From the IMG/VR virus record IMGVR_UViG_3300027766_000002: a stretch of 26,362 nucleotides of DNA; one strand, written 5' to 3'. The notes beneath the pieces were generated by a model that made no database searches, was not told where the DNA came from, and worked only from the letters and a program-made list of their open reading frames with translations. A program made the position numbers and the translations under genes. Positions 890 to 24,139 of this stretch are shown here, piece after piece (positions within the stretch are counted from its first letter, which is position 1; each line of letters starts with the position of its first letter). The DNA comes from a virus (taxonomy: Duplodnaviria > Heunggongvirae > Uroviricota > Caudoviricetes).

Positions 890-915
890 CATCTTAATCA
901 AAAGGAATTGAAAAG

Positions 916-1788
916 ATGCCATTACTGCGAGACGAAGCTGAAAAGCTGTCTAACAACGAACTGGAACAGGGCGTAATCGAAACTATCATCGATCGCGATG
1001 ACCTGTTTGCCGTTCTTCCTTTCATGAAGATCAACTCTAAGGCGTATCTGTACAACCGCGAAGATTCACTGTCTGAAGCCAGCTTCATTGACGTGAACGA
1101 TGTGGTTCCAGAAGGCGCTGCAACGTTCACCGAGCATGTGGCTAAGCTGCGTATTCTGGCTGGCGACGTTGACGTTGATAAATTCCTGGCAACCACCATG
1201 GCCGACACCAATAGCCAGCTGGCTATCCAGGTTCGTTCCAAAGTGAAAGGTTTGGCGCGCGCATTCCGCCGCAACCTGATCCAGGGTGACTCCACCAAAG
1301 ATGCCAAATCCTTCGACGGCATTGCCAAACTGATGGCTGCTGATCAGGGCATTGTTGCCAACGCTTCCATGACCTTCTCAATGCTCGATGAGCTGGTCGA
1401 TGCCGTGAAAGATCTGGGCGCTGACTGCCTGATGGTTCGTTCTGAGCATATGCGCGCTTACCGTGCGTTGCTGCGTACCGTGAACGTCGGCCCGTCTGAA
1501 GTGATGATCGAAAACTTTGGTCGCCCAATGCTGACTCACAACGGCATTCCTTTCATCGTGAACGACTTCATCCCTGTTGTTGACGGCGCTGCCGACATCT
1601 ACGGCCTGCATCTGTCCGAAGAGAACGGTCTGACCGGTCTGTACGGTGGTGATAATGCCGGTATCGTGGTTGAGTCCATCGGCACCGTTCAGAACAAAGA
1701 CGCCCTGCGTACTCGCGTTAAGTGGTACTGCTCTCTGGCGAACAAGCACGATAAAGCGATCGCAGCGCTGAAAGGCGTTAAGATTTAA
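916..1788 (+). CDS. Major capsid protein
   Basis: 290 aa, AAGGAA SD at 902-907, position after scaffold, followed by a strong terminator-like hairpin; sequence (GVIETIIDRDDLFAVLPF...KLRILAGDVDVDKF...RVKWYCSLA) resembles HK97-fold capsids of this phage group. Confidence 0.85.
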   Translation: MPLLRDEAEKLSNNELEQGVIETIIDRDDLFAVLPFMKINSKAYLYNREDSLSEASFIDVNDVVPEGAATFTEHVAKLRILAGDVDVDKFLATTMADTNSQLAIQVRSKVKGLARAFRRNLIQGDSTKDAKSFDGIAKLMAADQGIVANASMTFSMLDELVDAVKDLGADCLMVRSEHMRAYRALLRTVNVGPSEVMIENFGRPMLTHNGIPFIVNDFIPVVDGAADIYGLHLSEENGLTGLYGGDNAGIVVESIGTVQNKDALRTRVKWYCSLANKHDKAIAALKGVKI

Positions 1789-1795
1789 TCTTAAT

Positions 1796-1815
1796 GGTAG
1801 GTGGTTACCTACCTA
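1796..1815. promoter_or_regulatory. Palindrome GGTAGGT-GGTT-ACCTACC containing a TACCTAC box; candidate operator
   Basis: Perfect 7-4-7 inverted repeat at 1796-1813; core recurs at 4735, 18102, 22346 (minus strand) and 23037. Confidence 0.4.
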
Positions 1816-1830
1816 TCAACGATCACTAGC

Positions 1831-1859
1831 AAGGGTGGGCAAGTCGCCCACCCTTTTTT
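1831..1859 (+). terminator. Rho-independent terminator after the capsid gene
   Basis: AAGGGTGGGC-AAGTC-GCCCACCCTT followed by further Ts. Confidence 0.8.
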
Positions 1860-1870
1860 ATGGAGTAAAC

Positions 1871-2080
1871 ATGGCAGACAAAAAAGTACGTATTACCGAA
1901 GAAGTGCTCTCGGATTACACGGGTCACATGTTCGGTGTGCAATTAGAGAATAGCGTTACCACCAGCCCGGTGAGTGAAGCCCGACAGAAGCGAATGCTTG
2001 CCGCCCTGCGCGGTGAGGTAGTTGAGGTAGCTGCAGCCGCACCTACAGCTGCCACCGATGCCGGCACCGGCACTGAATAA
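1871..2080 (+). CDS. Small head-associated protein, 69 aa, paralogue of the N-terminus of the next gene
   Basis: ATG at 1871 with GGAG SD at 1862-1865; the ORF-track start at 1835 lies inside the terminator. Confidence 0.75.
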   Translation: MADKKVRITEEVLSDYTGHMFGVQLENSVTTSPVSEARQKRMLAALRGEVVEVAAAAPTAATDAGTGTE

Positions 2081-2120
2081 ATATAACTTGGCCGTCTAAT
2101 CGGCCTCTATGGGGACTCAT

Positions 2121-2555
2121 ATGAAAACTGCAAAAGTAAGACTGCTCGAATCCTGCTTCAAAGCCTATACCGGCATGCTGTGTGGCATCCAGTTTGAAGA
2201 TGGCATCTCTGTATCAGAACTGCCATTTGTGGATCAGCAGCGTATTTGCTCATCTATGCGCGCAGAAACCATTGAGGGCACCAATGTGTCTCCTTCTGGC
2301 ATTTATAGCGAACGTCATGGGTTATCCGCTGACAACGTAAAAGAGACCTCTGCGCCGGTTAATGAGCGTATGGAGCGAGTGACCACGCAAGCCCATGTAA
2401 GCACTCAGCCTATGTTCTCTCGTGAAGAGCTGGAGGCGGTAGCCGATAGCGAAGGAATTGCCGGTTTACGCCAGATCGGAAATGAGCTGGGGGTAAAGGG
2501 CAAGGGCATCGTTGAGATGATTGAAGGCATTTTGAAAGCCCAGGGCGGTGAATGA
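2121..2555 (+). CDS. Head-associated protein, 144 aa, with a C-terminal short helical (Rho-N/HeH-like) segment
   Basis: GGGGA SD at 2111-2115, ATG 2121; stop overlaps next start (ATGA). C-terminal FSREELEAVADSEGIAGLRQIGNELGVKG pattern; domain call is by eye. Confidence 0.65.
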   Translation: MKTAKVRLLESCFKAYTGMLCGIQFEDGISVSELPFVDQQRICSSMRAETIEGTNVSPSGIYSERHGLSADNVKETSAPVNERMERVTTQAHVSTQPMFSREELEAVADSEGIAGLRQIGNELGVKGKGIVEMIEGILKAQGGE

Positions 2556-3385
2556 TGGCTCAGCTCGGCACGTTTAAAAGCGGCGAAGCTGTTTCGCTGT
2601 CATTCACTCTCAATGTGCTAGACGCGGCAACCGCAACGTACACCCTGAAAGACGGCCGGGCGAACATTGTGGCGGAAGATGTGCCAGTGGAATTTGAGGC
2701 TGGCCAGATGTCCGTCACTGTTGTCGTGCCAGCTGAATACAATCAGCTGGCAGATCGTGAACGGGATTTGCGTCGTTTGGTCTTGACGGTTAATGACGGC
2801 ACTATTAATCACCTCACAGAGCAGCTGTATGTTCTGATGGCAGACTTTGAGCTGGCGGTTCCACGGCATTCGTTTGCCACAATCGCCGACGCCCAGATGC
2901 AGGCAATCGACATGCTGAATGGTGATGCTTTGCTTGCCGATGGCGACAGCTTGATGCGTAAGCGTCTTATTGAGGCCACGAATCGCATTAAGACAATGCC
3001 TTTCTCAATTCGTCGAATCTTTGGTATCGATTATGACGATTACGATCGACCGCAAAACATGCTGAACGTCACCACAATGCCGTTTGGCGCAGCAGGACAG
3101 TACCGCGTTGATATGGTGGATTGGGATGAGCTGACCGATGAGGATTTTGCTGCATTCCCGGATGTCTTTAAGCGCGCTGTGATGTTGGCTGTGATCAACG
3201 AAGCGTGTGAAATTGCCAACGGCAATGATGTAGCTGCCGCGCGTGAAGATGGAATCCTGTCGGAGTCGATTGGCGAGACGACCAACATGTACCGAACCGG
3301 CAAGAGCGCACCCAAAACGGTTGCCAGAACCACTTGGCGTTTGTTAGCGAAATACACTAATAACCGGTTTATCGTTCGTCGATAG
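2552..3385 (+). CDS. Head-tail adaptor/head completion protein with N-terminal beta-rich extension
   Basis: 277 aa, coupled to the upstream gene; C-terminal ILSESIGETTNMYR resembles SPP1 gp15-like adaptors; position between capsid and neck genes. Confidence 0.55.
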   Translation: MMAQLGTFKSGEAVSLSFTLNVLDAATATYTLKDGRANIVAEDVPVEFEAGQMSVTVVVPAEYNQLADRERDLRRLVLTVNDGTINHLTEQLYVLMADFELAVPRHSFATIADAQMQAIDMLNGDALLADGDSLMRKRLIEATNRIKTMPFSIRRIFGIDYDDYDRPQNMLNVTTMPFGAAGQYRVDMVDWDELTDEDFAAFPDVFKRAVMLAVINEACEIANGNDVAAAREDGILSESIGETTNMYRTGKSAPKTVARTTWRLLAKYTNNRFIVRR

Positions 3386-3494
3386 CCAATTGTCGTGCCA
3401 GCAGCCACCAGCATGGGGGCAGGGTTGAAGTCATCCTTGATGCACCCGCACCAGCTGAATGGCGCTGGCGCTGTTTATTCACATGGAGGTGAGT

Positions 3495-3839
3495 ATGCAC
3501 GTAGCCTGGCAAACTGAACTCGCTGTGTACCGCAAAGGCGGAATGAACATCTACGGCGAGTCGAAATATCAATTTGTTAGAAGCGCCAAAGTTGGCGTGG
3601 TGAACTTCACGGAAGGTGTTGTCCAGTCGTCCGTAAGGGCTGATAGCTCTGGTAGTCGTGGCAAAGCTGACGTAGAGACGTTTAATGCTGTGTTAATTGT
3701 GCCCCTGGCTGCTGATGTTAAGCTGGATGACGTTCTGGTGATGTCTGGCACTAAGTTGCTGGTGGCGAGCGTAGAGCGTCGTTGGGGGCTTCGTGGGCGC
3801 CCTGGTCATCTGGAAGTCGGGGCAAACGTATGGGTCTGA
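3495..3839 (+). CDS. Head closure protein (SPP1 gp16-like), 114 aa
   Basis: GGAGGTG SD at 3485-3491, ATG 3495; size, beta-rich sequence and position. Confidence 0.55.
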   Translation: MHVAWQTELAVYRKGGMNIYGESKYQFVRSAKVGVVNFTEGVVQSSVRADSSGSRGKADVETFNAVLIVPLAADVKLDDVLVMSGTKLLVASVERRWGLRGRPGHLEVGANVWV

Positions 3840-4300
3840 GTTACGACGCTACAAAGTTACGACGCCAGGCCAATTCTCTCGATCAGCGTCAAAAAGCATT
3901 TAAGCGTTACCTGCTTCGCGACATGGAGAAGGTGGCTAAGGTGATGGAGCGATTGGCCAGAGCTATGGCGCCGATTGAAACCGGATCACTTGAAAAGGCG
4001 ATTTACGCGCGCGTGATCAATAACTTCTCTGAGGTGAAAGTCGAGCTGTATGTCTCCGGTGCAACATCTCGCGAGGGACACCCGGGCGTGACGGTTGGGC
4101 AATATGCGGATTACATGCACAACGATCACTACCGGCTTGGCCGATTGTCGAGAATGAAGAGCGTCACCAACCCGCCGATCGAGGGAATGCGAGCGAGGGT
4201 AGGGCGTCTCTATATGGAGCGCGCGATTGAAATGGGCGAAAAACGGTTCAGGGAAGCTGTGACAGAAGCAGCGAGAAAGGCCGGATTCACAAGGGGGTGA
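3830..4300 (+). CDS. Neck/tail completion protein (HK97 gp10-like), 156 aa
   Basis: ATG 3830 overlaps the upstream gene end; MAPIETGSLEKAI matches the APVDTGxLR motif of this family. Confidence 0.65.
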   Translation: MGLSYDATKLRRQANSLDQRQKAFKRYLLRDMEKVAKVMERLARAMAPIETGSLEKAIYARVINNFSEVKVELYVSGATSREGHPGVTVGQYADYMHNDHYRLGRLSRMKSVTNPPIEGMRARVGRLYMERAIEMGEKRFREAVTEAARKAGFTRG

Positions 4301-4301
4301 A

Positions 4302-4682
4302 ATGTTTATTGAAGTGTTTGCTAAATTTCTTCAGGACAAGAAGTTAGGCGTGATTGGTAAAGATACTTTCGCGCATCACATGCCGGCTTCAGTCAAAAGC
4401 GGAATTTTGCTGGTGAATCCCAATACCGGTATTGCCATTGACCGCGAGCTTGATGGCTTTTATCAGGATGTTTTTACAGTAATCATCAGAGAGCCAACAT
4501 TGTCTGCAGTGTCGGCCAGAGCTAACAAAATCATGGCCGTACTGCCTCTGCTTGATACAGAAGTCCAGGGCATTCGGTTTAAATTTGTTAAGCCTCTGTC
4601 TCTACCGATCATTTACCCGCAGGATGATGGATCGCTGTTCGAAGCTGGTATTCCCGTCGAATTTGCAGCATATCCAGTGTAA
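4302..4682 (+). CDS. Tail terminator protein, 126 aa
   Basis: AAGGGGG SD; last gene before the tail tube gene; typical size. Confidence 0.55.
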   Translation: MFIEVFAKFLQDKKLGVIGKDTFAHHMPASVKSGILLVNPNTGIAIDRELDGFYQDVFTVIIREPTLSAVSARANKIMAVLPLLDTEVQGIRFKFVKPLSLPIIYPQDDGSLFEAGIPVEFAAYPV

Positions 4683-4705
4683 TCATCATTAAAATAGCTT
4701 CATGG

Positions 4706-4746
4706 TTACTTTTTTAAAGTAAAAAATAGCTATATACTTACTTTTG
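4706..4746 (+). promoter_or_regulatory. Candidate late promoter for the tail operon: -10 TATACT (4733-4738), no canonical -35, upstream inverted repeat TTACTTT-TTT-AAAGTAA (4706-4722), TACTTACTTTTG box (4735-4746)
   Basis: AT-rich 108-bp intergenic region; motifs read directly. Confidence 0.45.
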
Positions 4747-4786
4747 CCGCAAGGAATGCGGCACTTAATGCAAAAAGGAGTTTGCA
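4746..4786 (+). promoter_or_regulatory. Two GGA-loop RNA hairpins in the tail-tube leader (CsrA-type sites); the second contains the SD
   Basis: GCCGCA-AGGAA-TGCGGC (4746-4762) and TGCAAA-AAGGAG-TTTGCA (4769-4786). Confidence 0.6.
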
Positions 4787-4790
4787 AACA

Positions 4791-5552
4791 ATGGCTAACA
4801 CTCATGTTAAAAATATCAAATTAGGCGCTTGCAAAGTGTGTTTCGGTGGCCAGGATCTTGGCTACACTAAAGGCGGCGTTGAAGTTGAGATTTCTACCGA
4901 AACCCTCAAAGTCACCGTTGACCAGTTGGGTCAGACCACCATTTCCGAACTGGTGCAGGGTCGTAACGTGAAAGTTACCGCTCCACTGGCCGAAAGTGTT
5001 CTGGCGAACCTAGTTAATCTGATGCCTGGCTCGACCATGTCTGAAGATAAAAATACCCTGTCAATCAGCTCCGCTCAGGGCGTCAACCTCGTTGATGTTG
5101 CCCAAGAACTGATCCTGACGCCGCAGGACGGCACCGACTTCGTGCTGACTCTGCCGAAGGCCGCTACCGCGGGTAACTTCACCATGGCCTACAAATCCGA
5201 TGACGTTCGCGTGTTCTCCGTTGATTTTAACGCATACCCGGACGACGACGGCATTCTTGGAACCATGACCAACCCAAAGCCTAATGCTGGTGACGCATCT
5301 GTCGCAGTCACTGGCGTAGCTGTTAATCCAACCACGGCAAATATTGCAGTGGGCGGTACTACTCAGCTGGCCGCAGTATTTGCGCCTACCAACGCCACCG
5401 ATAAAACCGGTACATGGGTATCGAGCAACACTGCTGTAGCTACTGTAGATAGCACCGGCAAGGTAACTGGTAAGGCTGCGGGTAATACCCAGATCACCTT
5501 CACCACCACTGACGGCGCGAAGACTGCTTCGGCGGCAATCACCGTCGCGTAA
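4791..5552 (+). CDS. Major tail tube protein with C-terminal Ig-like (Big_2) domain
   Basis: LGYTKGGVEV tube motif; C-terminal VAVTGVAVNPTT...TWVSSNTAVATVDSTGKVTGKAAG is a classic Big_2 pattern; AAGGAG SD, ATG 4791. Confidence 0.9.
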   Translation: MANTHVKNIKLGACKVCFGGQDLGYTKGGVEVEISTETLKVTVDQLGQTTISELVQGRNVKVTAPLAESVLANLVNLMPGSTMSEDKNTLSISSAQGVNLVDVAQELILTPQDGTDFVLTLPKAATAGNFTMAYKSDDVRVFSVDFNAYPDDDGILGTMTNPKPNAGDASVAVTGVAVNPTTANIAVGGTTQLAAVFAPTNATDKTGTWVSSNTAVATVDSTGKVTGKAAGNTQITFTTTDGAKTASAAITVA

Positions 5553-5558: not shown

Positions 5559-5585
5559 AAGAGGCTCAGGACGAGCCTCTTGTTT
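5559..5585 (+). terminator. Hairpin after the tail tube gene: weak terminator and/or CsrB-type site (loop AGGAC)
   Basis: AAGAGGCTC-AGGAC-GAGCCTCTT then GTTT. Confidence 0.55.
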
Positions 5586-5599
5586 AAATGGATTTGAAA

Positions 5600-5917: not shown

Positions 5918-6270
5918 TTACCCGCGATGAGTCCGGGCAGATGGTGACGGTTTCCATCGATCTCGGATTCTATTTCAGTCGTGTTGTTGCTCACTATGCC
6001 GTTTCACCGAGAGAACTACTCCAGCTGCCGTTGGCCATGTTTTGGATGTTAAGTCGAAACATTGATCGTCTCCGGGCTGAAGAGGATGTCCGCAGTTTCC
6101 AGGTGGCAAGAGTCGCCCAGGCAGATGCGGATAGCGGCAAGGCGTTCATGGAGGGTTTGCAACACCGTATTGGAAGACCAGTCGTTACCGATAAAGTCTA
6201 CGATCCAAGTTATGCGAAAGCAGACCCCGACGCCAAAGAGCAACTGATGAAAATTTTTGGCGCAGGATGA
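5911..6270 (+). CDS. gpT-like -1 frame extension of the tail chaperone (G-T fusion)
   Basis: The -1 frame is open from 5905 to 6270 (KVITRDESGQMVTVSIDLGFYF...) and has a stop at 5902-5904; no SD before ATG 5941. Confidence 0.7.
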   Translation, partial: KVITRDESGQMVTVSIDLGFYFSRVVAHYAVSPRELLQLPLAMFWMLSRNIDRLRAEEDVRSFQVARVAQADADSGKAFMEGLQHRIGRPVVTDKVYDPSYAKADPDAKEQLMKIFGAG

Positions 6271-6277
6271 CAAGGGA

Positions 6278-9200
6278 ATGTCTGACAACGTAGAGTTTAT
6301 TCTGTCGCTGGACGATAAAAAGTTCACCGCGGCAATCGACCGGGCGGGAAAACTGCTGGTCAGTTTTGGCGAGAAGGCCACAAAGCCAGCCCAAAAAATC
6401 GCAACACTTGAGCGCTCTCTTGGTTCAGTCGCCGGGATTTTGGGGACGCTCGACAAAAAGCTGGAATCGGTCGCCAACGGTCTTCAGGACTTAGGCGCCG
6501 GTTTCGAGCTTGTCTCAAAGGCCATGCGCGACACCAGACAAGAGCTGGTGGCGTTCAATGCCAACCTCAAAACCTACACCACTCGCATTGACGCTGCTGA
6601 TAAAGCCACAAAAGGGTTTCATCATTCGCTGCAGGCTGTCCAATCTGAGCTGAGTGATTTCTCCGATTGGGCTAATCATGCTGGTCGCTCTGCATCATCA
6701 TTTGGCCATGAGGTCAAACAAGCTAACACCGCAACCTCTGGCATGAGCACTCGTTTGTCCAACTCCAGCAAGAAAATGGAGAATTGGGCTGCATCGTCCA
6801 CCAAAGCCGCCACCCAGATGAAAAAGGTCGTGGCGGAGATGGACGCGCTTATTAACCGCCAAAGAGAATTGGGCAATCTGCGAGCGGATGTACGTGGACC
6901 TGGCCGTGGTGGTTCCGGTGGTCGTTCGGGTCGTGGTGGTCGTCACTCAAGCGGCGGTCTGATGGACGGCATGAGAGGCAATATCTTCATGCTCGGTGAA
7001 ATCGGGGATGCAGCCTATACCGTTCAGCAGATGTTGTTTGGTTGGCAGGTGCCAATCGTCGAAGCAGCAGCCCAGATGCAGAAGATGCGCATCTTGCTTG
7101 AAGGCATGAACAAAGAAGCAGCCAACCCGAAGCTGGCTGCGACTAATGACATGAATTACATCGTGAACATGGCTAAAACAGCCCCGTTCGCAATGGAAGC
7201 GCTGACAGACGCATTCGTTAAATTCAAGTCAGCTGGCATCGATCCCGCTAATGGCTCTCTAAAGTCGCTGGTTGACTCTGTGGCTCGCTTTGGTGGCGAT
7301 AGTGAGCTGTTGAAGCGAGCAGCTGTAGCAATCCAGCAGATGTCCGGTAAGGGCGTCATTTCGATGGAAGAGCTGCGTCAGCAATTAGGTGAAGCAGTTC
7401 CTACCGCGATGCAGGCAATGGCAGATTCCGCAGGCGTTACCATGGGGCAACTGACCAAGGCGATTTCTACCGGTACTGTCTCAGCGAAGCAGGGTTTAGA
7501 GCTGTTATTCCAGGGGCTTGATGCTCAAAGCCGTGGTGCAGCCGAAAATCTTATGCAGGCATACAGTGGGGCGCTGGCTCAACTCCAGACCTCATTCACT
7601 CTGTTTGCCGATCGTATTGGCCGTGCTGGCTACCTTGAATCAATCACTAAAGCCTTCAAAGAGTTGTCCAGTTACATGAACAGCACTGACGGGAAGGTGT
7701 TTGCGCAGGATCTGGGCGAGGGGCTGTCCACTGCGGTAAACGCGCTAATGGATATGGCGAAGTGGGCGGAGCGTAACAAAGAGCTGCTTCTCACGCTCGG
7801 CCAGACTGCTTTAGCATTAATCGGCTTTAAAGTGCTGAAAGGTACTGTGACAGGGCTGGCCACTGCAGGTACACAAATGGGAGGCAGCTTCAAAAAAGCA
7901 TTTGAGGTCGTAAACGGCGCTGGTGCGAAAACAATCAGTGTAATTGCCGGTGTAGTTAAAACATTCCGTGATCTCGGCGGCACCGCGGCGATGATCATCT
8001 ATGTAGGCGAGGCCATTAAGATGGTTCGCACCGCATGGCTGGCATTCCAGGCCGTGATTGTGGCCAACCCTGTGGGCGCAGCAATTACCGCAATTGCTTT
8101 AGCGGTCGGTGGGTTAATCACCGTAATGTCATCGCTGCGTGACAAAACCGCCGAAACAGTAGCGGAGATTCGCAAGATCCCTGAAGCGATGACAGCGGCA
8201 CAGCGATCTCAAATGACCGCTCGTATCAAGCAGCTAGAGAGCCAGAACAGCGGCGATCAGCAGACCCTTGATGCGATGAAGAGCGGTGGCCTTTCGTCTT
8301 CAGCAATTGGTGTTGATCAGAAGGCACTTCAGTCGCGGTTAGAAGCAAATAAGAAGGAGTTGGCTCAGCTTAAAGAGACCGTTGGTATGGGTGATAAAGC
8401 CCAATACGAGAACCTGGCGCGCGATATTGTCACCAAACGCCTGGAAGACGTAGACAACGGCATCAAAGCGGGGATGGCTCAGTACAGCACCACTACTCTT
8501 AAGGACGCACGCAATAAGCGCACGGTGCTTTCGCAAGACCAGAAAATGTCTCCATCTGAGAAAAGCGCGCAGCTGGAAGCAATCAACGCTGCCGATCGCG
8601 ACGCTCATCTCAAGCCATTCCTGGATGGGGCAGACAAAACCCAGAAGATCGTCGATAGCCTTGGGCAAGAGGTTGTTCGAATTACGAAGCTGCTGGAAAA
8701 CCCGAACCTGAATGACAGCGACCGCTCGCGTCTGCAAGGTCAATTGAATGGCCAATCTCAGGCATACAACACCGCGCAGGAATCACTCAGCAGTTTACAG
8801 GGGCAAATTAAGAACATCCGTGAACAATCTGGTAAGGGCTTGCAGATGCTGGATGGTTCTTATTATACCGGTGTTGGCGGTACCAAAAAGCAAGATGATC
8901 GCCTGAACTCACTGTTTGTAAATTCCCAGCTCGGTACTGGCAAACAAACCCGAATGAATCCAGACGGCACAATCATGCGTGATATTGCCGGCGATGCTGT
9001 AAAGGGTGATGCCCAGCTGAAGGCTAACACTAAGCTGCGTTCTATCTACGGCGAAACCATTAAGATGGAGCAACTTACCGCAGACCAGCGCGAGAAGATT
9101 TCTTCCATCCTGACCGCGGCAAAGCTGAAGGATGAGCAAAAAGCCCAGCGCGCAGCTGAGCGAGCGGGTAAATCTGCTGAATCAGCGGCTAAGCGTGAGG

Positions 9201-10855
9201 AGAGTGCGCGTCAAAAGGCAATTAAAGCCAATGAGACGTGGATCGGAAGAGCGGAGCAGATGGCCGGCCAGTTGGGGTTGTCATCGAAAGCGAGCGTTGA
9301 GTTCGACCAGAACATTCAGGAAGTCACCAAGCACCTGACTGAGATGGCTAACGCAGTGCCAAGCGATACGCTTTCCAAAGGGATGATCGACAACGCCAAA
9401 ACCATGCTGGCGTTCATCAACCAGAACAAGGACGCCTATTCCAAGCGGCTGAATCAAGACGCTGCCGAACAGAGTATTGCCAAGTTCGCTCCGATGGCCA
9501 ACAAGGTGATCAGCTCAGGCTACACCCCGGATTATCAATCTACGGCGGCCGAGTGGAATAAGAAGTTTAACGAAAGCCTGGCTTACCTGCAGAGTCAGTC
9601 GAAGAACGCTCAAGACCAGGGCATGAAAGAGGTGTACGACCGTGCAATCTCACAAATGCTGGCTGGCCGAAATAAAGCGTTTATTGCAGAGGTTGGCACG
9701 TCTCAGCAGAAATTGGCGCAGGAGTACAGCGATGTAGCCTCGCAAATGGAATCTGTGTGGACGAGCTGCTTCGAAAATCTGACTGATAAGCTGACCGAGT
9801 TCGTCAAAACAGGCAAGTTCAGCATCGCTGATTTTGGCGATTACATCTTTGACGAAATGTTGAAGGTTAGCACCAAAGCACTGGTTGTTGAGCCGCTTAT
9901 GCAGTCGCTGGGCAAGGGTACAAACTCAGGAGCCAGTTGGGGCGATAAACTGTCGGGTGCCAAAGATGCGGTTATGGGGAGCTTCACTAAAACCCAGCAA
10001 TCAAGCTCGCCAGTTGAGGCAATGTCTTCACCAGCCAGCGCCGGTAACGACTCTGGCAGCATGTTTGATGGGCTAAAGAACTCCTTCAAGTCACTGACCA
10101 CATCCTTATCGGATCTGGCGTCATCAGGTTTGAAAAGCCTGAAAGATGGCTTCAACGAATTGACGGGCAGTACCAAAAACTCGACAACCGCGGTGACGCA
10201 AAATGCAGTCTCTACTCAAGAGGCGACATCTGCAACTCGTGGATTCACTTTGTCAGCAAGCACGGCTGTAACTGCGATCGGTGCGACGATTTCAGCGCTG
10301 GGCGCTGCTACAGGCAATAAGTGGATGGGGTATGTAGGGGCGGCCGCGAGCATTATGGGGTTGGCATCATCTGCGTATGGTGCGATGTCCTCTGCCGGTT
10401 GGACAGGAAACTCGGCCAGCACGGTGCAGGATGGAACCGAAGGTTTTCAGGTCAAGCCAAACGCCAATCAGTTTCAGGTGACGGCACACGCCAAGGGCGG
10501 GGTGTTCGGTCCAGACGGTGTGGTTCCTCTCAAAAAGTACGCCAAAGGCGGTATCGCCTCATCCCCGCAGCTGGCGTTGTTTGGCGAGGGCAGTCACAAA
10601 GAGGCGTATGTGCCACTCCCAGACGGGCGTTCGATCCCGGTGACGTTTACTGGCGGTGGCGAGGGTGCTGGCGGCGACAGTGTGGCGATTTCTATCACTG
10701 TTCAGAATTACGGTGACGGTAGCAGCAAGTCATCTGAGAACTCGGACAACGGCTCTCAGTGGAACGATATGGCTCGCAAAGTTAAGGCGGTCGTGCTTGA
10801 CACACTGACCGACGAAAGCAGACCGGGCGGCATGTTAAGCAGTACAAGCAAATAA
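6278..10855 (+). CDS. Tape measure protein, about 1525 aa
   Basis: Very long helical Ala/Gln/Lys-rich ORF, tape-measure motif (AKTAPFAMEALTDAFVKF...LRQQLGEAVP), C-terminal HAKGG...GEG.EAYVPL; AAGGGA SD, ATG 6278. Confidence 0.95.
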   Translation: MSDNVEFILSLDDKKFTAAIDRAGKLLVSFGEKATKPAQKIATLERSLGSVAGILGTLDKKLESVANGLQDLGAGFELVSKAMRDTRQELVAFNANLKTYTTRIDAADKATKGFHHSLQAVQSELSDFSDWANHAGRSASSFGHEVKQANTATSGMSTRLSNSSKKMENWAASSTKAATQMKKVVAEMDALINRQRELGNLRADVRGPGRGGSGGRSGRGGRHSSGGLMDGMRGNIFMLGEIGDAAYTVQQMLFGWQVPIVEAAAQMQKMRILLEGMNKEAANPKLAATNDMNYIVNMAKTAPFAMEALTDAFVKFKSAGIDPANGSLKSLVDSVARFGGDSELLKRAAVAIQQMSGKGVISMEELRQQLGEAVPTAMQAMADSAGVTMGQLTKAISTGTVSAKQGLELLFQGLDAQSRGAAENLMQAYSGALAQLQTSFTLFADRIGRAGYLESITKAFKELSSYMNSTDGKVFAQDLGEGLSTAVNALMDMAKWAERNKELLLTLGQTALALIGFKVLKGTVTGLATAGTQMGGSFKKAFEVVNGAGAKTISVIAGVVKTFRDLGGTAAMIIYVGEAIKMVRTAWLAFQAVIVANPVGAAITAIALAVGGLITVMSSLRDKTAETVAEIRKIPEAMTAAQRSQMTARIKQLESQNSGDQQTLDAMKSGGLSSSAIGVDQKALQSRLEANKKELAQLKETVGMGDKAQYENLARDIVTKRLEDVDNGIKAGMAQYSTTTLKDARNKRTVLSQDQKMSPSEKSAQLEAINAADRDAHLKPFLDGADKTQKIVDSLGQEVVRITKLLENPNLNDSDRSRLQGQLNGQSQAYNTAQESLSSLQGQIKNIREQSGKGLQMLDGSYYTGVGGTKKQDDRLNSLFVNSQLGTGKQTRMNPDGTIMRDIAGDAVKGDAQLKANTKLRSIYGETIKMEQLTADQREKISSILTAAKLKDEQKAQRAAERAGKSAESAAKREESARQKAIKANETWIGRAEQMAGQLGLSSKASVEFDQNIQEVTKHLTEMANAVPSDTLSKGMIDNAKTMLAFINQNKDAYSKRLNQDAAEQSIAKFAPMANKVISSGYTPDYQSTAAEWNKKFNESLAYLQSQSKNAQDQGMKEVYDRAISQMLAGRNKAFIAEVGTSQQKLAQEYSDVASQMESVWTSCFENLTDKLTEFVKTGKFSIADFGDYIFDEMLKVSTKALVVEPLMQSLGKGTNSGASWGDKLSGAKDAVMGSFTKTQQSSSPVEAMSSPASAGNDSGSMFDGLKNSFKSLTTSLSDLASSGLKSLKDGFNELTGSTKNSTTAVTQNAVSTQEATSATRGFTLSASTAVTAIGATISALGAATGNKWMGYVGAAASIMGLASSAYGAMSSAGWTGNSASTVQDGTEGFQVKPNANQFQVTAHAKGGVFGPDGVVPLKKYAKGGIASSPQLALFGEGSHKEAYVPLPDGRSIPVTFTGGGEGAGGDSVAISITVQNYGDGSSKSSENSDNGSQWNDMARKVKAVVLDTLTDESRPGGMLSSTSK

Positions 10856-10865
10856 GGAGTGGGGA

Positions 10866-11198
10866 ATGTCACGGACGACATTTACCTGGTTCCCGTTGTT
10901 TGATTCCGAGAAGGAGGTGAAGCCGGAAGTAACCCGGCTCGCCTTCAACGAAGGGTATGAGCAACGTGTAACCAGTGGTTTGAACTGGCGCAAATCCAGC
11001 TGGGATCTGCAATTCCAGGGTACACGAACTGAGATGCAGGAGATCGACGACTTCCTGTATGCGCGCGGCGGGGTGGAATCATTTGACTGGATTTCACCAA
11101 ACGGGCAGAAGGTTGTCGTGGTGAGCGATAGCCATAAGGTCAAAAACTCACGAGGGTACGCGACCTTGACCACAACTTTCCGCCAAGTATTTGAGTAA
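10866..11198 (+). CDS. Distal tail protein (lambda gpM-like)
   Basis: 110 aa; F.EGYEQR...GLN and FL.ARGGVESFDW motifs of gpM; follows the tape measure. Confidence 0.85.
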   Translation: MSRTTFTWFPLFDSEKEVKPEVTRLAFNEGYEQRVTSGLNWRKSSWDLQFQGTRTEMQEIDDFLYARGGVESFDWISPNGQKVVVVSDSHKVKNSRGYATLTTTFRQVFE

Positions 11199-11202: not shown

Positions 11203-11240
11203 AGCCCTCCAAGGATGGGGGGCTAATATTCAAGGATGAA
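11203..11240 (+). promoter_or_regulatory. Tandem CAAGGATG hairpins upstream of the gpL-like gene (CsrA-type sites)
   Basis: AGCCCTCC-AAGGAT-GGGGGGCT (11203-11224, no U tract) and TTC-AAGGAT-GAA (11229-11240). Confidence 0.6.
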
Positions 11241-13359: not shown

Positions 13360-13423
13360 TGCATAACCACTACGCAGGCTTAGACATTTGCGGTGGTGGC
13401 TAAGGTAGATTAAGTAAAACAGT

Positions 13424-13475
13424 TGGGCATCGACAGGAGGTTGATGCCCAGCCATGCGCCGGCAGGATGCCAGCG
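13424..13475 (+). promoter_or_regulatory. Two CsrB-like GGA-loop hairpins in the I-J intergenic region
   Basis: TGGGCATCGAC-AGGAG-GTTGATGCCCA (11-bp stem) and CGCCGGC-AGGAT-GCCAGCG. Confidence 0.6.
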
Positions 13476-18101: not shown

Positions 18102-18173
18102 TACCTACTTTTGTAAATGCGCAGGAGCGTAGTTTAACCGCCGAAGCAAGGAATGCTGACGCGTTAAGGAGAA
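18102..18173 (+). promoter_or_regulatory. Tail-fibre leader: TACCTACTTTTG box and three GGA sites (two in hairpin loops, one the SD)
   Basis: TGCGC-AGGA-GCGTA (18118-18131), AGCA-AGGAA-TGCT (18145-18157), TAAGGAG (18165-18171). Confidence 0.55.
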
Positions 18174-18176: not shown

Positions 18177-21100
18177 ATGTGGTACAGGGAAGGTACTAAA
18201 ACCTTGATCAATGGTTCTAACATCGTTACTGGTGTCGGCACCAGTTGGTCTAAGGCTGAAAATGGCGTTCTGCCGGGCATGATCTTGCTTGGTGAAAAAG
18301 GTGAGCCATACGAAATTAAGTCGGTTGAGTCAGATACATCGCTTACGCTCGTAGAACCTTACGATGGCAAAAACGTGAATAACACTCCATGCCGTATCAT
18401 CACGACCTATCAGGGTGACATCAGTCAATTTTCAGCGCGCTTTGCGGCTCAGCTGCAACGCATGAATATTGATTCAGGCGTTATTCGCTCTTGGCTTACT
18501 TCGGGGCAGGATGCCCAGCTGTTAGCTGAGGATGGAACACTGATCACGCTGAAGGCTTTGCGTCAGATTGTCTCTGAACACGAAGATGCAATGGCCTGGT
18601 TTTCCGCAAACCAAGATTCGATTCTGAAGGCCGCCGCTAACGCAACAGCTGCTGCTTCAAGTGCGTCAGCAGCATTGGCATCCCAGAAGGCGACAAAGAC
18701 TTCAGAGACAAACTCAGCGGGATCAGCGCGTGCGGCTGCATCCTCCAAAGCGGCAGCGGCGGCTTCCGCTACCAAGGCGGCAGCGTCAGAGAAAAACGCC
18801 AAGGCATCTGAAGTTAACGCCAAGGCATCCGAAACCGCCGCAAGTGGTTCGGCAATCGCTGCAGCCACCTCAGAAACTAGCGCAAAAGCCTCCCAAGGCT
18901 CTGCAACTTCCTCTGCAGGAAAGGCAGCTACTTCAGAGAAGAACGCGGCTGCATCCGCCACCAGCGCAGCCAGCTCAAAAGGTTCGGCAGCAACGTCGGC
19001 AACAAGTGCAGCCACTTCCGCAACTAACGCTAAAACATCCGAAAGCAACGCGAAGAAGTCCGAAGCAAATGCTAAGGCTTCTGAAAATGCAGCAGTTGGT
19101 TCTAAATCCGCAGCGGCGGCTTCAGAGGCTAACGCCAGTACCTCGGAAACAAATGCTGCATCAAGTGCGACTGCGGCTAAGGCATCTGAGACCAGCGCAG
19201 CCAGCTTTAAATCGGCCGCGGCCACCTTTGCTACCAACGCTAAATCTTCAGAAACAAGTGCGGCCAGCTCTAAAACAGCTGCGGCCACCTCTGCATCGAA
19301 GGCGGCCACCTCGCAATCGAATGCCTCGACCTCGGAAGCTAACGCAAAGAAATCAGAGACAAATGCTAAAGCATCTGAGAATGCCGCAGCGAGTTCAAAC
19401 TCTAACGCAGGTAAATCAGCGTCAGCTGCTAAAACCTCTGAAAACAATGCGGCCGCCAGTGCATCGTCTGCTGCGGCATCGGCCAAGAGCCTCGATACAG
19501 ATAACTTATGGAAAAAAACAACTTTAACTAAAGCAGTATTGGTCGGCTTAGGGTTGGCTCCAGGTGACGCTCCATCCTTCACTGGCGGTGTTACCGTTGC
19601 CGGCACTATTAAGAATACCGGAGAAGTGCAAACTACAGCCACTAACTCATACCGTATGGTTGGCAGTAACTACGGCTTATTCCAGCGCATTGATGGTGCT
19701 AACTGGTACATGATGCTGACCGACCTGAAAGACAATTATGGAACCTATAACGCCTTCCGCCCGCTTTCTATAGCGCTTACAAGCGGTAGAGTGACTATGG
19801 CAAATGGTTTGAGTGTAACGGGTGATGTAAGGCTCGCTTCAAACCTAGCTGTGACGGGCGCACTTAGTGCTACAAAAGGGGCCATCGTGAACGCGCCGGG
19901 AGCTGGCGCGGTAGCTGATTCGACTGGCGCGGCGCTACTTGTGAATGGCTCTGCAAATAATGGCACTCAAGGCATTACGGTTAACAGCTACGCGCCCTCG
20001 TTGTCCTTAATTGATCGTAGCGCATCGAGTGCTAGTTTTCGCTGGCGCGGAGATGGCAACTGTTTGCGCTTAGATGTCGATAATCGTGACAATGGCGCAA
20101 CATGGAACAGCAATCTAGTTCAGATTGACGAACAGGGTCGATTGAGCATTGGTGGCGTAGTAACTGCTGATTATGCGGAGTCATTTACCTACCGGGATCA
20201 GTGGAAAACGAAAGCCCCTTTCTTCAATGAGATTTCTTCGAGTGGAGCAAGCGAGTATCACCCACTGGTGAAGCAGAAAGTGACCGCAGGAAATAAGAGC
20301 TATGTAGCGTCTCTCGGTTGGCTGGTTAATTCAATGGTGTTTGAACTGGGCATTACCGATCAAGCAGGCAACACTAAAAACTTTACCTTCCGACCTAATG
20401 GTGAGTTCTCAACTCCGGCCAGGGTTTTGCCAGGTGATTACTCCAACTTCGATACCCGTTATTTGCGAATCAAGGGGAATGCAGTAAGCGCAAGCAAATT
20501 AGCCACGTCTCGTAAGATTGCAGGAAAGGCTTTTGATGGCACATCTGACATTGCGATCAGCGCTGGTGACGTTAAAGCGTTACCTAATACAGGGGGCACA
20601 GTGGCCGGGCAGGTAACTGTTGCAGCAAATGGCCCCGCTCTTGTCCTGAGACGCTTGGCGGCTTCTCAGGCAGTTTATCTCATGGGGCGTGACGAAAAAA
20701 ACGTTGCACGTTGGTACGTTGGAAATGGCGGCTCGGATGATGTTGTTACGATTCACAATTACATCCATAACACTACTATGCAGCTTAACGCCTCGGGCCT
20801 GCACACCAACAGAAACATTCGTGCTGCCGGTACTCTCACGTTAAATGGCAGTGGTGAGTCGAACGCGGTTTTAGGCTCTGGAACCTCAGATGTATTCATG
20901 CAAAACTCCAAATCAAATAAGTACCTCCAGCTTAAAGATAACGGCGTTTTGGCATATTCGGATTCCGCCATTTACCACCAGGGCAATAAACCTACAGCTG
21001 CTGATGTAGGCGCGCTATCAAGTTCTGGCGGTACTGTTATCGGCCCCGTGGTTTCAACAGATCCGAATGGTTTCCGCATTAAATACGGGGCGTTCGGTTC

Positions 21101-21854: not shown

Positions 21855-22339
21855 TGACGGTAGGATCTGGGTGGATTGGTTCAAGTGCAGTAGGGGAAAC
21901 CGCTCAGCGTTGGATGTCGGCCGCAGGGCCGGCAATCAATGTCGGAGTTCCTTTTTGGATGAGTACATTGGCAGGTAAAAGTAAAGGGGTAAAGTTGACT
22001 GTGGTACAAAAGCAGGTGGGGGTTCTGCCGCCTGGCGTTCGTGGACCTCAGCCTTTCCCGATTGTAGAGTTCGGTTATCATAAAGCGCAAGGTTTTGGTG
22101 GTATCACTGGTAACTACAATGGCCGCGAAATCATTGCCCTCTACTCCAGCACACAATTTGGCGGCCTTTTGTTCCAGCTAAGTGGCGCAATGTCAGGCTC
22201 GGTCGTCATTAAAATTAATGGGGCGGCATTTACGTTGCCCTATAACTCATCAATAAATGCATATGCGATTTTAAATAATAATGCGGCCTACGCTGCTTTG
22301 CAGACAAGGGTAGGCCAAACGGTCGAGGTGACTTTTTAA
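21854..22339 (+). CDS. T-even gp38-like adhesin (receptor-recognising tip protein), short form of 161 aa
   Basis: N-terminus GWIGSSAVGETAQRWMSAAG...VPFWMSTLAGKS has the three-Trp pattern of T2/S16-type gp38; TAATG overlap with the fibre gene. Confidence 0.8.
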   Translation: MTVGSGWIGSSAVGETAQRWMSAAGPAINVGVPFWMSTLAGKSKGVKLTVVQKQVGVLPPGVRGPQPFPIVEFGYHKAQGFGGITGNYNGREIIALYSSTQFGGLLFQLSGAMSGSVVIKINGAAFTLPYNSSINAYAILNNNAAYAALQTRVGQTVEVTF

Positions 22340-22419
22340 CGGCGGTTGTAGGTATTTAGCTATTATCGTGTATCAAATAGTGGATAATGCACTCATTCAA
22401 ACCGAATGGGTGCAATATC

Positions 22420-22710
22420 ATGAAATGTTTAAATTTGTCCTTCCTTGCATTGGCTCTTGCCTCGCTCACTATTACTGGCTGCGCCGGATTTCCCGGCTCA
22501 AATATTGAGAAAGTTGATTGTATTGCGAAATATACCTCTGGAACCTGGCCGGGTGGTGAGCACTGGGTGAAGGTTGACCAGCGTCGTGTTAATCACGTTG
22601 GGCATCGTTACGTTCACGTAAATAGTGATTTAGTCCTGCACTTCTATGGCCGCTGGCAGCGAGAAGAGCTGTTTACTGATTACCAGTGCAAAAAGGCAGA
22701 TGAGGTATGA
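22420..22710 (+). CDS. Cor-like superinfection-exclusion lipoprotein 1
   Basis: MKCLNLSFLALALASLTITG|C lipobox; Cys...W...F....C spacing as in Cor. Start at 22420 preferred over 22387. Confidence 0.6.
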   Translation: MKCLNLSFLALALASLTITGCAGFPGSNIEKVDCIAKYTSGTWPGGEHWVKVDQRRVNHVGHRYVHVNSDLVLHFYGRWQREELFTDYQCKKADEV

Positions 22711-22994
22711 TTAAATTAGGCTCAAAGCTCCTTATCGCCGCTTTGGTTTTAAACGTGTTAGGGTGCGCGGATCTGCAAAGGTTCGAGAGACACAAGGTAA
22801 GCTGCTACGGCAAGTATGGCTCGAACTTTACAGGCTTTACACGTTATAAGTGGATCAAGATTGATGCTATCAGTGTCAGTCAAAACGGCACTCGCTTTGT
22901 TCACCCAGAGCCTGACCTCGATGTGAGTTTCGAGGCTAATTGGGTCTCGGATAGAGTGTTTAAAGAAATCCAATGTGAACCCCTTCCAAAATAA
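22707..22994 (+). CDS. Cor-like superinfection-exclusion lipoprotein 2
   Basis: MIKLGSKLLIAALVLNVLG|C lipobox; VSC...WVSDRVFKEIQC ending as in Cor; ATGA overlap with copy 1. Confidence 0.6.
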   Translation: MIKLGSKLLIAALVLNVLGCADLQRFERHKVSCYGKYGSNFTGFTRYKWIKIDAISVSQNGTRFVHPEPDLDVSFEANWVSDRVFKEIQCEPLPK

Positions 22995-22999
22995 TCCCC

Positions 23000-23025
23000 A
23001 AAAGCGCCTGTTGGCGCTTTTTCTT
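23000..23025 (+). terminator. Rho-independent terminator (potentially bidirectional)
   Basis: AAAAGCGCC-TGTT-GGCGCTTTTT then CTTT. Confidence 0.85.
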
Positions 23026-23036
23026 TGGTTGTTAGC

Positions 23037-23067
23037 TACTTACTTTCCTGTTGCATTTTGATACTAT
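23037..23067 (+). promoter_or_regulatory. Candidate lysis promoter: TACTTACTTT box in the -35 position, -10 GATACT/TACTAT
   Basis: TACTTACTTT 23037-23046; TTGATACTAT 23058-23067; lies right after a terminator. Confidence 0.4.
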
Positions 23068-23105
23068 TTGCGCCTATCGAGATTTGACTTTTCATGGAGG
23101 AAAAA

Positions 23106-23432
23106 ATGTCAAATGAGATGGGAGGCGTGACGCCAGACCAGGTGGAGCGCATCGCCCAAATTGTTGCCAGAGAGGTCATGGGGAACTTGCGAAAGGATCT
23201 CCGTGATGACATCGGCGCAGAAGTGAAAGCGCAGCTAAGAGCCTATTTTGGTGATATGACAGCCGCTCAACACAGCATCCAGCACTCAAATCTGGAAAAG
23301 CTGCTGACGCGGTTAGACAGCATCTCAAGTGGATTCTTCGGCGGCATCATCTCCAAGATCACATCCATTCTAACCGCTGCTCTTATTCTGGGGCTGGCGG
23401 CGTATGGCGTTAAAAACGGTTTCGGCAATTAA
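23106..23432 (+). CDS. Single C-terminal TM protein heading the lysis cassette; holin/antiholin candidate
   Basis: GGAGG SD, ATG 23106; hydrophobic C-terminal segment (ITSILTAALILGLAAYGV); position before the endolysin. Confidence 0.5.
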   Translation: MSNEMGGVTPDQVERIAQIVAREVMGNLRKDLRDDIGAEVKAQLRAYFGDMTAAQHSIQHSNLEKLLTRLDSISSGFFGGIISKITSILTAALILGLAAYGVKNGFGN

Positions 23433-23446
23433 GAGGAAGGCTAAGG

Positions 23447-24139
23447 ATGGCTACTCCAAGAGGTATCAGAAACAACAACCCCGGCAACCTTGACCGCGGC
23501 GATCCGTGGCAGGGGCTGGTGGGTAACCCTGCAGAACCGAGGTTCTGCACATTCAAGGACGCGACCTGGGGCATCCGTGCTCTGGCTGTAACGCTCATTA
23601 CCTATCACGACAAGCGCAAAGCTCAGGATGGCTCGCCGATCGACACTGTCCGTGAAGTGATCGAACGTTGGGCGCCGCCACATGAGAACGACACTGAGGC
23701 ATACATCAATGCGGTGGCCAAGGCAGTCGGCGTCTCTCCTGAGATGATTGTGGATCTCCACGACTACAGCACTTTGCGCCCTCTGGTGGAGGCAATCATT
23801 CGCCATGAGAATGGTAAAGGCCCATTAAAGACGGCAAACAGCTGGTATTCAGTGGAAGCCATCGACGAGGGTCTGCGTCGTGCCGGTGTTGTGCGAGTGG
23901 TCAAAGCCGTAAAAGCGGTTCCGGTCACTAAGGAATCTGCTGGCGCAACGATTACAGCCGGTATTGGTGTCGCGCAGCTGGTGGACGTAGCGCCGCAGAT
24001 CACTCATGCGATGGATAAGGCTCAGGACAATATCTCCAGTGGCGACACCATTCGCATCGTGTTCGGTGTTGCCACGGTAGCAATTGCACTATTCATCGCC
24101 TGGTCTCAGGTTCGCAAACACCAGAAGGGGATCGCGTAA
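23447..24139 (+). CDS. Putative endolysin (lysozyme-like RGIRNNNPGN family) with hydrophobic C-terminal tail
   Basis: RGIRNNNPGNL...RWAPPHENDT.AY...AIIRHENG motifs; flanked by a holin candidate and spanins. Confidence 0.7.
   Translation: MATPRGIRNNNPGNLDRGDPWQGLVGNPAEPRFCTFKDATWGIRALAVTLITYHDKRKAQDGSPIDTVREVIERWAPPHENDTEAYINAVAKAVGVSPEMIVDLHDYSTLRPLVEAIIRHENGKGPLKTANSWYSVEAIDEGLRRAGVVRVVKAVKAVPVTKESAGATITAGIGVAQLVDVAPQITHAMDKAQDNISSGDTIRIVFGVATVAIALFIAWSQVRKHQKGIA

Follow-up and report, generated by a model that had tools for sequence, protein, structure and literature searches.

SSU5-type phage-plasmids are common in Escherichia coli, Salmonella (pHCM2), Yersinia pestis (pMT1), Klebsiella, Enterobacter and Cronobacter, and some of them carry resistance genes. 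As plasmids they silence some 25 kb of virion and lysis genes and time the production of particles, for which no means other than the repressor is known. The stretch of DNA analyzed here is a 26.4-kb window corresponding to bases 2821-29182 of a single 79.5-kb virus contig. Judged from its sequence, the window is the late (head, tail and lysis) operon of a partial phage-plasmid of the SSU5/pHCM2/pMT1 type. An initial annotation of the window had proposed that its late ribosome-binding sites lie in hairpins that expose GGA in their loops, as do the targets of translational regulators of the CsrA/RsmA type. Hairpins with A(N)GGA loops are indeed a real, family-specific RNA feature, conserved and strongly over-represented on the virion and lysis genes. 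That they make the late mRNA of SSU5-type phage-plasmids a carrier of a selected set of Csr/Rsm-type protein-binding sites, with host CsrA as the likeliest ligand, is a proposal to which we would give about an even chance.

The complete plasmid pCP102 (Enterobacter sp.) resembles the contig at approximately 90% nucleotide and 97% protein identity, and it is more distantly related to phage SSU5 of Salmonella, to pMT1 of Y. pestis and to some 480 further plasmid records. The late genes, all on the plus strand, encode the scaffold, major capsid, head completion, tail tube, G/T chaperone and tape measure proteins, followed by a gpM/L/K/I/J-like tail tip, a tail fibre and holin and endolysin candidates, after which parA begins; many genes of the late region have no known function. 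Gene starts follow the Prokaryotic Genome Annotation Pipeline for pCP102 and GenBank for SSU5 and were placed by tblastn, those in unannotated relatives being tblastn extrapolations.

RsmE/CsrA binds with high affinity to an ANGGAX hexaloop set directly on a stem; AGGAX and A(R)GGA pentaloops are variants bound equally well or less tightly (PMC4005645). The loops described in the initial annotation fit this published target. A strict rule, set beforehand and taken unchanged from the same structural work (Duss et al. 2014, PMC4005645), accepted ANGGAX hexaloops and AGGAX/ARGGA pentaloops that close directly onto a stem of 4 bp or more. By this rule the late sense strand holds 19 sites, whereas 100 shuffles preserving dinucleotides gave 4.4±2.0 and never more than 9 (z 7.4). 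No excess was found on the antisense strand (2 sites vs. 2.4 expected), in the remaining 50 kb of early and plasmid sequence of the contig (9 vs. 9.2) or in the late operon of phage lambda (3 vs. 5.4). The late regions of pCP102 and SSU5 hold 22 (5.9 expected) and 21 (5.8 expected) strict sites, respectively. At gene starts, the anticipated enrichment of late over early genes was likewise borne out, strict sites being present in 9 of 27 late and 4 of 82 early genes of pCP102 (Fisher 4e-4) and in 9 of 29 late and 3 of 85 early genes of SSU5 (Fisher 2e-4); further strict sites lie far from starts and inside coding sequence. When hairpins were sorted into 256 loop classes by first loop base and three-base core, A..GGA was the outlier, with a z of 8.1 and a runner-up at 4.5. 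Without the leading A, GGA still ranked first (z 3.9) but TGA and TAC came close, so that it is the leading A that makes the class unique.

Structure sampling gave a concordant picture. The probability that the GGA of the Shine-Dalgarno (SD) sequence lies in a hairpin loop was 0.43 for late genes of pCP102 and 0.29 for those of SSU5, as compared with 0.13 and 0.11 for the respective early genes, 0.10 for lambda late genes and approximately 0.1 for shuffles that preserved both GGA and ATG. Chance, or an artefact of composition or of permissive hairpin definitions, is a disfavoured and highly improbable explanation for these numbers. It draws on the behaviour of a loose rule (stems of 4 bp or more, G-U pairs allowed, closed by any loop of 3-8 nt), which also scores about 30% of shuffled start regions and 11 of 27 lambda late genes. 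Under that rule late genes were 1.7-2.9-fold enriched (13 of 27 in pCP102 vs. 7.4 expected; 16 of 30 in SSU5 vs. 9.5), and we dropped the loose counts as too permissive. Chance is at odds, however, with the z of 7.4 under a strict predefined rule, with the limitation of the excess to the sense strand and the late module, with its recurrence in eight lineages and with sampled loop probabilities 3-4-fold above those of shuffles. As a separate observation, loops with the cores TGA, TAC and G..TTC are also over-represented on the plus strand of window positions 1-24400 (z 3.8-4.5); those with a TGA core may represent stop codons or stop-start overlaps held in loops.

The comparison was extended to diverged late regions from the IMG/VR lineages L045/L048, L054 and L056 and from genomes of Photorhabdus, two Xenorhabdus, Morganella, Photobacterium and a Halomonas prophage. 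The strict-site excess was present in all six further SSU5-family lineages tested (z 2.8-5.9), making eight lineages in all and reaching as far as Xenorhabdus, Morganella and Photobacterium. It was not seen at the very distant Halomonas locus, nor in three of the four unrelated phage regions examined, and in the fourth, L058, it was weak (z 2.5). External controls thus comprised one well-annotated phage, lambda, and these four unannotated regions. In seven lineages the probability of finding the SD GGA in a loop was 0.22-0.61, with shuffles at 0.10-0.14; the lineages being related, P values from pooled tests overstate their independence.

Conservation of the feature on differing stems across SSU5-family lineages, anticipated at the outset, is evident for the scaffold, capsid, tube, chaperone, tape measure, gpM and gpL genes. 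The tube loop is carried by stems TGCAAA/TTTGCA, GGTAAA/TTTACC, GGAAAA/TTTTCC, ATAAGTA/TACTTAT or GTAA/TTAC depending on the lineage, and the capsid loop by TCAA/TTGA, TCAT/ATGA, AATATA/TATATT, TGTTAA/TTAATA or ATTGTCTA/TAGATAAT. Relatives have stronger chaperone hairpins (TTTAAAA-GGAT-TTTTAAA, TTAAA-AGGAC-TTTAA), tape measure hairpins of the form TGACA-AGGGAA-TGTCA, GGATA-AGGGAA-TGTCC or TGACA-AGGAA-TGTCA, and gpL sites on stems of 5-7 bp (ACTCA-AGGA-TGAGT, TCTTCA-AGGA-TGAAGA, TGTTTCA-AGGAG-TGAAACG), and in other lineages the gpM SD is itself looped (CACA-AGGA-TGTG, CTCA-AGGA-TGAG, GTATGTTA-ACGGAG-TAACATAT). Alignment of tube and capsid starts with MAFFT left the arms out of register, the loops differing in size, and stems were compared by distance from the loop. 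Native hairpins proved longer than chimeras joining the 5' side of one lineage to the 3' side of another, the chimeras being re-optimised (4.90 vs. 3.64 bp; Mann-Whitney 1e-6). The predicted stem covariation is thus real but only partial, because half of the chimeras still reach 4 bp, and they do so because the arms share an A-rich/T-rich pattern; RNAalifold, applied to the tube-chaperone leader in the close clade, called a single covarying pair and did not call the weak ribosome-site hairpin. The G-U pairs in many stems, together with the strand bias, indicate an RNA-level feature of the sense strand.

What do these hairpins look like in the window? All those quoted in the initial annotation (eight at ribosome sites, four looser ones, one at 4286-4301 with an AAGGGG loop and seven upstream) are exact in sequence and position, and those described individually below lie on the plus strand. 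Folded alone, the eight at ribosome sites have little stability (0 to -3.8 kcal/mol). We describe each by the probability P that its GGA lies in a hairpin loop, sampled over the ensemble with 50 nt on either side; by this measure the capsid, tube, tape measure and endolysin hairpins (P 0.75-0.98) are well populated, whereas the other four (P 0.04-0.24) are predicted to be poorly so, leaving half of the set thermodynamically marginal. In the major capsid start region (890-918; ATG 916), the inner hairpin TCAA-AAGGAA-TTGA (898-911; P 0.98) is nested in an outer stem, CATCTT/AAGATG, that contains the ATG, and is present in the minimum free energy (MFE) fold. The tail tube hairpin TGCAAA-AAGGAG-TTTGCA (4769-4786; ATG 4791; P 0.90) holds the SD in its loop. 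At the head-closure gene, TATTCAC-ATGGAG-GTGAGTA (3476-3495; P 0.24) forms 7 bp with one G-U; its ATG is at 3495, the annotation of relatives being ambiguous between 3459 and 3495. The tail chaperone site TTTAA-ATGGAT-TTGAA (5583-5598; ATG 5600) is exact in sequence and has a P of 0.09, and the holin-candidate site TTTTC-ATGGAG-GAAAA (23089-23104; ATG 23106), equally exact, has a P of only 0.04, is found in the MFE structure of the intergenic fold and is identical in a Salmonella relative. The gpL site TTCAAGGATGAA (11229-11240; ATG 11249; P 0.11) has a stem of only 3-4 bp and matches 10 of 12 positions of the CsrA consensus obtained through in vitro selection (SELEX). The gpM-like gene, missing from the initial list, begins in GAATGTC-ACGGAC-GACATTT (10864-10883), a perfect ANGGAX site with the ATG (10866) in its 5' arm, and the hairpin is retained in pCP102. 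In all, strict sites mark the starts of the capsid, head-closure, tube, chaperone, tape measure, gpM, holin and endolysin genes.

The looped GGA was said to be the SD in most cases. This holds for genes such as that of the tube and fails for two others. At the tape measure start (GACA-AGGGAA-TGTC, 6269-6282; ATG 6278; P 0.75) the looped GGA abuts the ATG, with CAGGATG 11 nt upstream, and at the endolysin start (GGCT-AAGGAT-GGCT, 23439-23452, a strict site; ATG 23447; P 0.97) it overlaps the ATG, the actual SD being GAGGAAG, 10 nt upstream; since it touches the ATG, neither GGA can be an SD. The endolysin hairpin is not kept in the Salmonella relative L008. Conserved loops whose GGA is unable to serve as SD are found in the tape measure gene (at -3), in an ATGGAA loop of the portal gene and in a hairpin at the variable portal 3' end. 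The last of these (G000 2740-2770, just left of the window) lies about 57 nt before the scaffold start, in a poorly conserved gene end, and is kept in relatives on the unrelated stems TTCCC/GGGAA, CCTCAA/TTGAGG and CCCCG/TGGGG though the encoded residues differ.

Absence of such hairpins from parA and the accessory genes, also part of the initial annotation, was confirmed. parA (26070-26086) and about 20 early pCP102 genes share instead a start motif of their own, AAGGAAA(A/C)(A/G)CAC-ATG, often preceded by AAAACAAnTTGTT, which is never found in a hairpin loop. The unlooped early motif, set against the GGA loops of the late genes, points to two distinct start-site designs for two gene classes.

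Many late genes have, in addition, a second, GC-rich hairpin 20-40 nt ahead of the start-site loop, and these upstream hairpins are the robust members of the set: those at 4746, 5559, 11203 and 13424 fold with -8 to -18 kcal/mol and a P of approximately 1.0. The tail tube leader carries TGCCGCA-AGGAA-TGCGGCA (4745-4763; -9.2 kcal/mol, P about 1.0), a GGA hairpin confined to this clade, other lineages having AGA, GTGAA or TAGATT loops there. Upstream of gpL lies AGCCCTCC-AAGGAT-GGGGGGCT (11203-11224; -15.3 kcal/mol, P 1.0), whose match to the SELEX consensus extends to 9 of 12 positions; GGA loops on unrelated stems occupy the same place in SSU5, Xenorhabdus and Morganella. The gpJ leader contains GTTGGGCATCGAC-AGGAG-GTTGATGCCCAGC (13422-13452; -17.8 kcal/mol, P 1.0) and an imperfect second hairpin, CGCCGGC-AGGAT-GCCAGCG (13457-13475), exact in sequence with a P of only 0.17. 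Two hairpins precede the tail fibre gene (ATG 18177), namely TGCGC-AGGA-GCGTA (18118-18131; P 0.98; in the MFE fold) and AGCA-AGGAA-TGCT (18145-18157; P 0.81), the latter 20 nt before the SD AAGGAG; members of the SSU5 clade have GGCGGGCG-GGGA-TGCCCGTC or GACGGGCA-AGGA-TGCCCGTC at the same place.

The suggestion that several leaders carry a second GGA hairpin was thus well founded. A start-proximal A(N)GGA with another 10-63 nt upstream, which is reportedly the range that a single CsrA dimer can bridge, is present at 37% of late genes but at 12-13% of early and 7% of lambda late genes. From loop to loop the usual distance is 20-24 nt, the pairs 4752/4775, 5568/5588 and 11211/11232 of the window being spaced by 20-23 nt.

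Some of the upstream hairpins resemble transcription terminators. The hairpin 3' of the tail tube gene, AAGAGGCTC-AGGAC-GAGCCTCTT (5559-5581), is GC-rich, with 9 bp, -14.0 kcal/mol and a P of 1.0, and resembles a conserved attenuator or terminator bearing GGA in its loop. Its 3' tail, TTGTTTAAA, is too T-poor for our terminator scan; relatives have T4-T6 runs there. Across lineages a hairpin followed by a T-run is found at this tube-chaperone junction, with an AGGAC, AGGAA or AGGA loop in the enterobacterial clades, ATGAC in one sister and GAAA, GAATA or TGAAAT in others. In sister lineages some such conserved terminator-like hairpins have a loop without GGA.

These junctions have further features of their own. 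A strong intrinsic terminator, AAGGGTGGGC-AAGTC-GCCCACCCTT followed by T6 (1831-1859), lies directly 3' of the major capsid gene, is conserved in SSU5 and is the sole clear terminator call in the late operon. Nearby, a palindrome, GGTAGGTGGTTACCTACC, occupies 1796-1813, also 3' of the capsid gene, and relatives carry TAAGTA..TACTTA palindromes at matching junctions. A leader motif, TAC(T/C)TACTTT(T/C), recurs at 4735-4746, 18102-18113 and 23036-23048, just 5' of the tube, fibre and holin GGA hairpins; were transcripts to begin at these motifs, the hairpins would form transcript 5' ends.

Terminator-like behaviour is central to the main rival explanation, in which the hairpins display SDs and punctuate the operon without any dedicated protein. 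Weak stems at ribosome sites would hold the SD single-stranded in a loop and insulate starts from a long, GC-rich polycistronic RNA, and the upstream hairpins, acting as partial terminators or stabilisers of 3' ends, would determine how much major relative to minor virion protein is made; GGA would be present in their purine-rich loops by descent or chance. Any SD has GGA at its core, an A-rich/T-rich pattern is common to the arms, the stems at ribosome sites are weak enough to melt upon 30S binding, and the hairpins 3' of the capsid gene (1831-1855, then T6) and of the tube gene precede T-runs in all lineages. Simple display and punctuation leave unexplained, however, that A..GGA is the only one of 256 classes to stand out, including in loops distant from starts and within coding sequence, and that no excess is seen in the lambda late operon or in three of the four unrelated phage regions. 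Nor do they account for the conserved loops around the GGAs, not SDs, at the tape measure, portal and, except in L008, endolysin starts. Among approximately 33 independent upstream hairpins (lineage-by-junction cases on unrelated stems), moreover, about two thirds carry GGA in the loop, as compared with 5% expected for random loops and at most approximately 30% for purine-only loops. We regard this rival as possible, if rather doubtful.

Several observations that fit that rival, and others besides, weigh against selection for Csr/Rsm-type binding. GGA is also the SD core, so that selection for SDs and for CsrA binding are confounded at ribosome sites, and the head-closure, chaperone, gpL and holin loops (P 0.24, 0.09, 0.11 and 0.04), four of eight, are poorly populated. 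Part of the stem conservation reflects shared A-rich 5' and T-rich 3' flanks, chimeras reaching at least 4 bp in 51% of cases, and a crude tally of stems 4 bp or longer fails to separate the lambda late genes (11 of 27) from the SSU5-type family. Upstream GGA loops are dispensable in places: sister lineages retain the hairpin with other loops, L054 having GAAA, GAGA and TAGATT at all three upstream hairpins, L021 having ATGAC where its own sister has AGGAC, and L008 having TGGC where SSU5 has GGAA; the tube-chaperone hairpin resembles a conserved terminator regardless of its loop. Agreement with the SELEX 12-mer is modest, with a mean of 6.9 of 12 positions vs. 5.9 for all GGAs and 6.1 for early SDs, and only two sites reach at least 9 of 12 in fixed-register scoring. 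Finally, it is not obvious what would be gained by repressing the most abundant virion proteins through a regulator that is most active in growing cells.

A published system offers a model for the layout seen here. CsrA represses cel, the lysis gene of plasmid ColE7, at two GGAs, one looped out by terminator hairpin T1 and the other belonging to the cel SD, each lying in a predicted loop; gel shifts and mutations demonstrated both the binding and the regulation (PMC2896534). This is the closest published precedent. Both elements are extrachromosomal and SOS-induced, and the tube-chaperone, gpL, fibre and holin/endolysin leaders of the window are laid out like that of ColE7, where the T1 hairpin stands between two genes, the second GGA overlaps the SD of the downstream lysis gene and the arrangement holds back a lethal late product. 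The ColE7 case differs in comprising one gene with two sites, whereas the window has approximately 19 predicted sites over a 24-kb virion operon, in an arrangement conserved across a phage family. The initial annotation knew of no earlier description; that claim needs qualifying, the same two-site CsrA layout having been published for the extrachromosomal lysis gene of ColE7 (PMC2896534). No paper found in our literature search links CsrA to SSU5-type elements or describes this hairpin feature for them, and the paper on LF82 'Cyrano' contains nothing on translation control. A 2025 report that csrA over-expression inhibits Salmonella prophage release attributes the effect to higher cI (PMC12371270); it shows that CsrA can affect phage life cycles and is no evidence for a mechanism acting through late hairpins.

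Host leaders provide a second comparison. Like sites of the window, E. coli glgC and pgaA and the 20-nt hcnA ribosome-binding site bound by RsmE present an ANGGAX hexaloop on a stem at the SD, with an upstream loop tethering the dimer (PMC4005645; PMC2896534), and the Morganella gpL site CTCACGGATGAG has the same ACGGAU loop as hcnA, the corresponding site of the window being TTCAAGGATGAA. Unlike these single 5' leaders of host genes, the window sites recur at internal cistron junctions of a long viral transcript, and many of their stems are A-U rich and weak. In the number of GGA-loop hairpins per RNA, with approximately 19 strict sites, the late transcript is reminiscent of the sponge RNAs CsrB, CsrC and RsmZ. 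CsrB itself carries about 18-22 GGA hairpin sites. The sponges, however, are non-coding RNAs of 250-370 nt, whereas the late transcript is approximately 24 kb of coding sequence with no Rfam match and no dense cluster of sites. The small start-site hairpins of phage genes recognised by MS2 coat protein (at the replicase gene), T4 RegA and T4 RegB are also comparable. RegB targets GGAG, often the SD. Each of those regulators is encoded by its phage and controls a single gene or early genes; none was found here, and the loop rule is that of CsrA.

If the loops are bound, which protein binds them? The sequence hallmarks of Csr/Rsm targets are all in evidence, namely an excess of A(N)GGA loops on stems, overlap with SDs or starts, and a second site 10-63 nt away; because the loop shape is the one best bound by CsrA, late-gene translation is probably tied to that protein. 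An element-encoded homologue, which the initial annotation had allowed for, was not detected, the Pfam CsrA model giving no match in the contig, pCP102 or SSU5 at E <=10. The GGA-repeat small RNA that it had envisaged did not materialize either: an Rfam search gave no CsrB/RsmZ-like match on the element at E <=1, and a sliding-window search revealed no dense cluster of GGA loops, the maximum being 7 loop sites per 350 nt and the densest windows being coding. An apparent GGA-loop hot spot at the portal 3' end, considered as a sponge, proved to be ordinary coding sequence. With neither CsrA nor a CsrB-like RNA detected on the element, host CsrA is the candidate ligand, an unrecognised protein being the other possibility. 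Relatives of the contig are hosted by Enterobacterales and Vibrionaceae, both of which carry chromosomal csrA.

A different RNA-binding protein could use the loops as operators, either an element-encoded late regulator or an autoregulating virion protein, as exemplified by MS2 coat protein and T4 RegA. The specificity of the hairpins to this phage family, the shared start motif of the early genes of the same element and the many late-region genes of unknown function would suit such a protein. Against it, no candidate was identified; no CsrA-fold gene was detected in the contig, pCP102 or SSU5; the rule that brought out the signal came, unadjusted, from CsrA/RsmE work; and the known hosts of the family all belong to the gammaproteobacteria, where CsrA is plentiful. 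On balance we find a regulator of this kind decidedly unlikely.

Returning to host CsrA, repression would be achieved as follows. Short hairpins would present A(N)GGA in a loop of 4-6 nt, placed either across the SD or start codon or, within a GC-rich hairpin, some 20-24 nt further upstream, and some of the upstream hairpins would double as attenuators. A CsrA dimer would take the upstream loop with one RNA-binding face and the start-site loop with the other, and in bridging them it would block 30S binding and hold late translation down. Release would come once late transcripts outnumber free CsrA, or once CsrB and CsrC lower the amount of free CsrA. What the sequences show is the motif, its excess on one strand and in one module, its conservation on changing stems and the two-site layout; CsrA as the binder, repression as the effect, and any bearing on leaky expression, on subunit stoichiometry or on the host carbon status invoked in the initial annotation are inferences. 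The hairpins could gate or dampen translation of the late genes, keep leaky transcripts silent while the element is a plasmid, or set a titration threshold that is crossed as late mRNA rises.

An unlikely variant is that the late transcript is both a target and a sponge of CsrA, or that the loops serve a phage protein with CsrA-like specificity. With approximately 20 sites of the high-affinity type per copy, rare leaky late transcripts would be fully silenced in the plasmid state, which would spare the carrier cell exposure to holin and endolysin and the cost of needless virions. Upon induction, late mRNA made in a burst would titrate the free CsrA of the cell, giving an ultrasensitive, all-or-none virion switch, and a side effect would be de-repression of the host Csr regulon.

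Three additional observations concern individual late-region loci. The tail tube protein has an immunoglobulin (Ig)-like C-terminal domain that is fused in frame in the window (5273-5279) and in SSU5; in L045 and L054 (around 10470-10510) the tube frame closes with '...PK*' directly behind a CCCAAAG heptamer, whereupon the -1 frame carries on into the Ig domain, and the Photorhabdus tube is devoid of the domain. It looks as if a programmed -1 frameshift had been replaced by fusion in the window. Following the lysis cassette, a 396-nt gap between annotated genes (24391-24786) folds very strongly (-142 kcal/mol for 420 nt); it is only partly covered by a 76-codon open reading frame (24311-24541) and could hold spanin genes or an RNA. 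Within the tail fibre gene, an isrG match in Rfam on the minus strand (18608-18888; 25.5 bits against a gathering score of 100, E = 0.003) is most likely due to chance.

Even if CsrA is not their ligand, the hairpins are a genuine RNA feature of this family, one overlooked by annotation pipelines, and they offer a defined and easily mutated set of RNA elements. If it is, they would constitute a conserved post-transcriptional layer in which a global regulator of the host couples phage production to host physiology, and the single precedent of ColE7 would be extended to a whole viral operon, with approximately 19 sites, in a widespread family of phage-plasmids that includes pHCM2 and pMT1.

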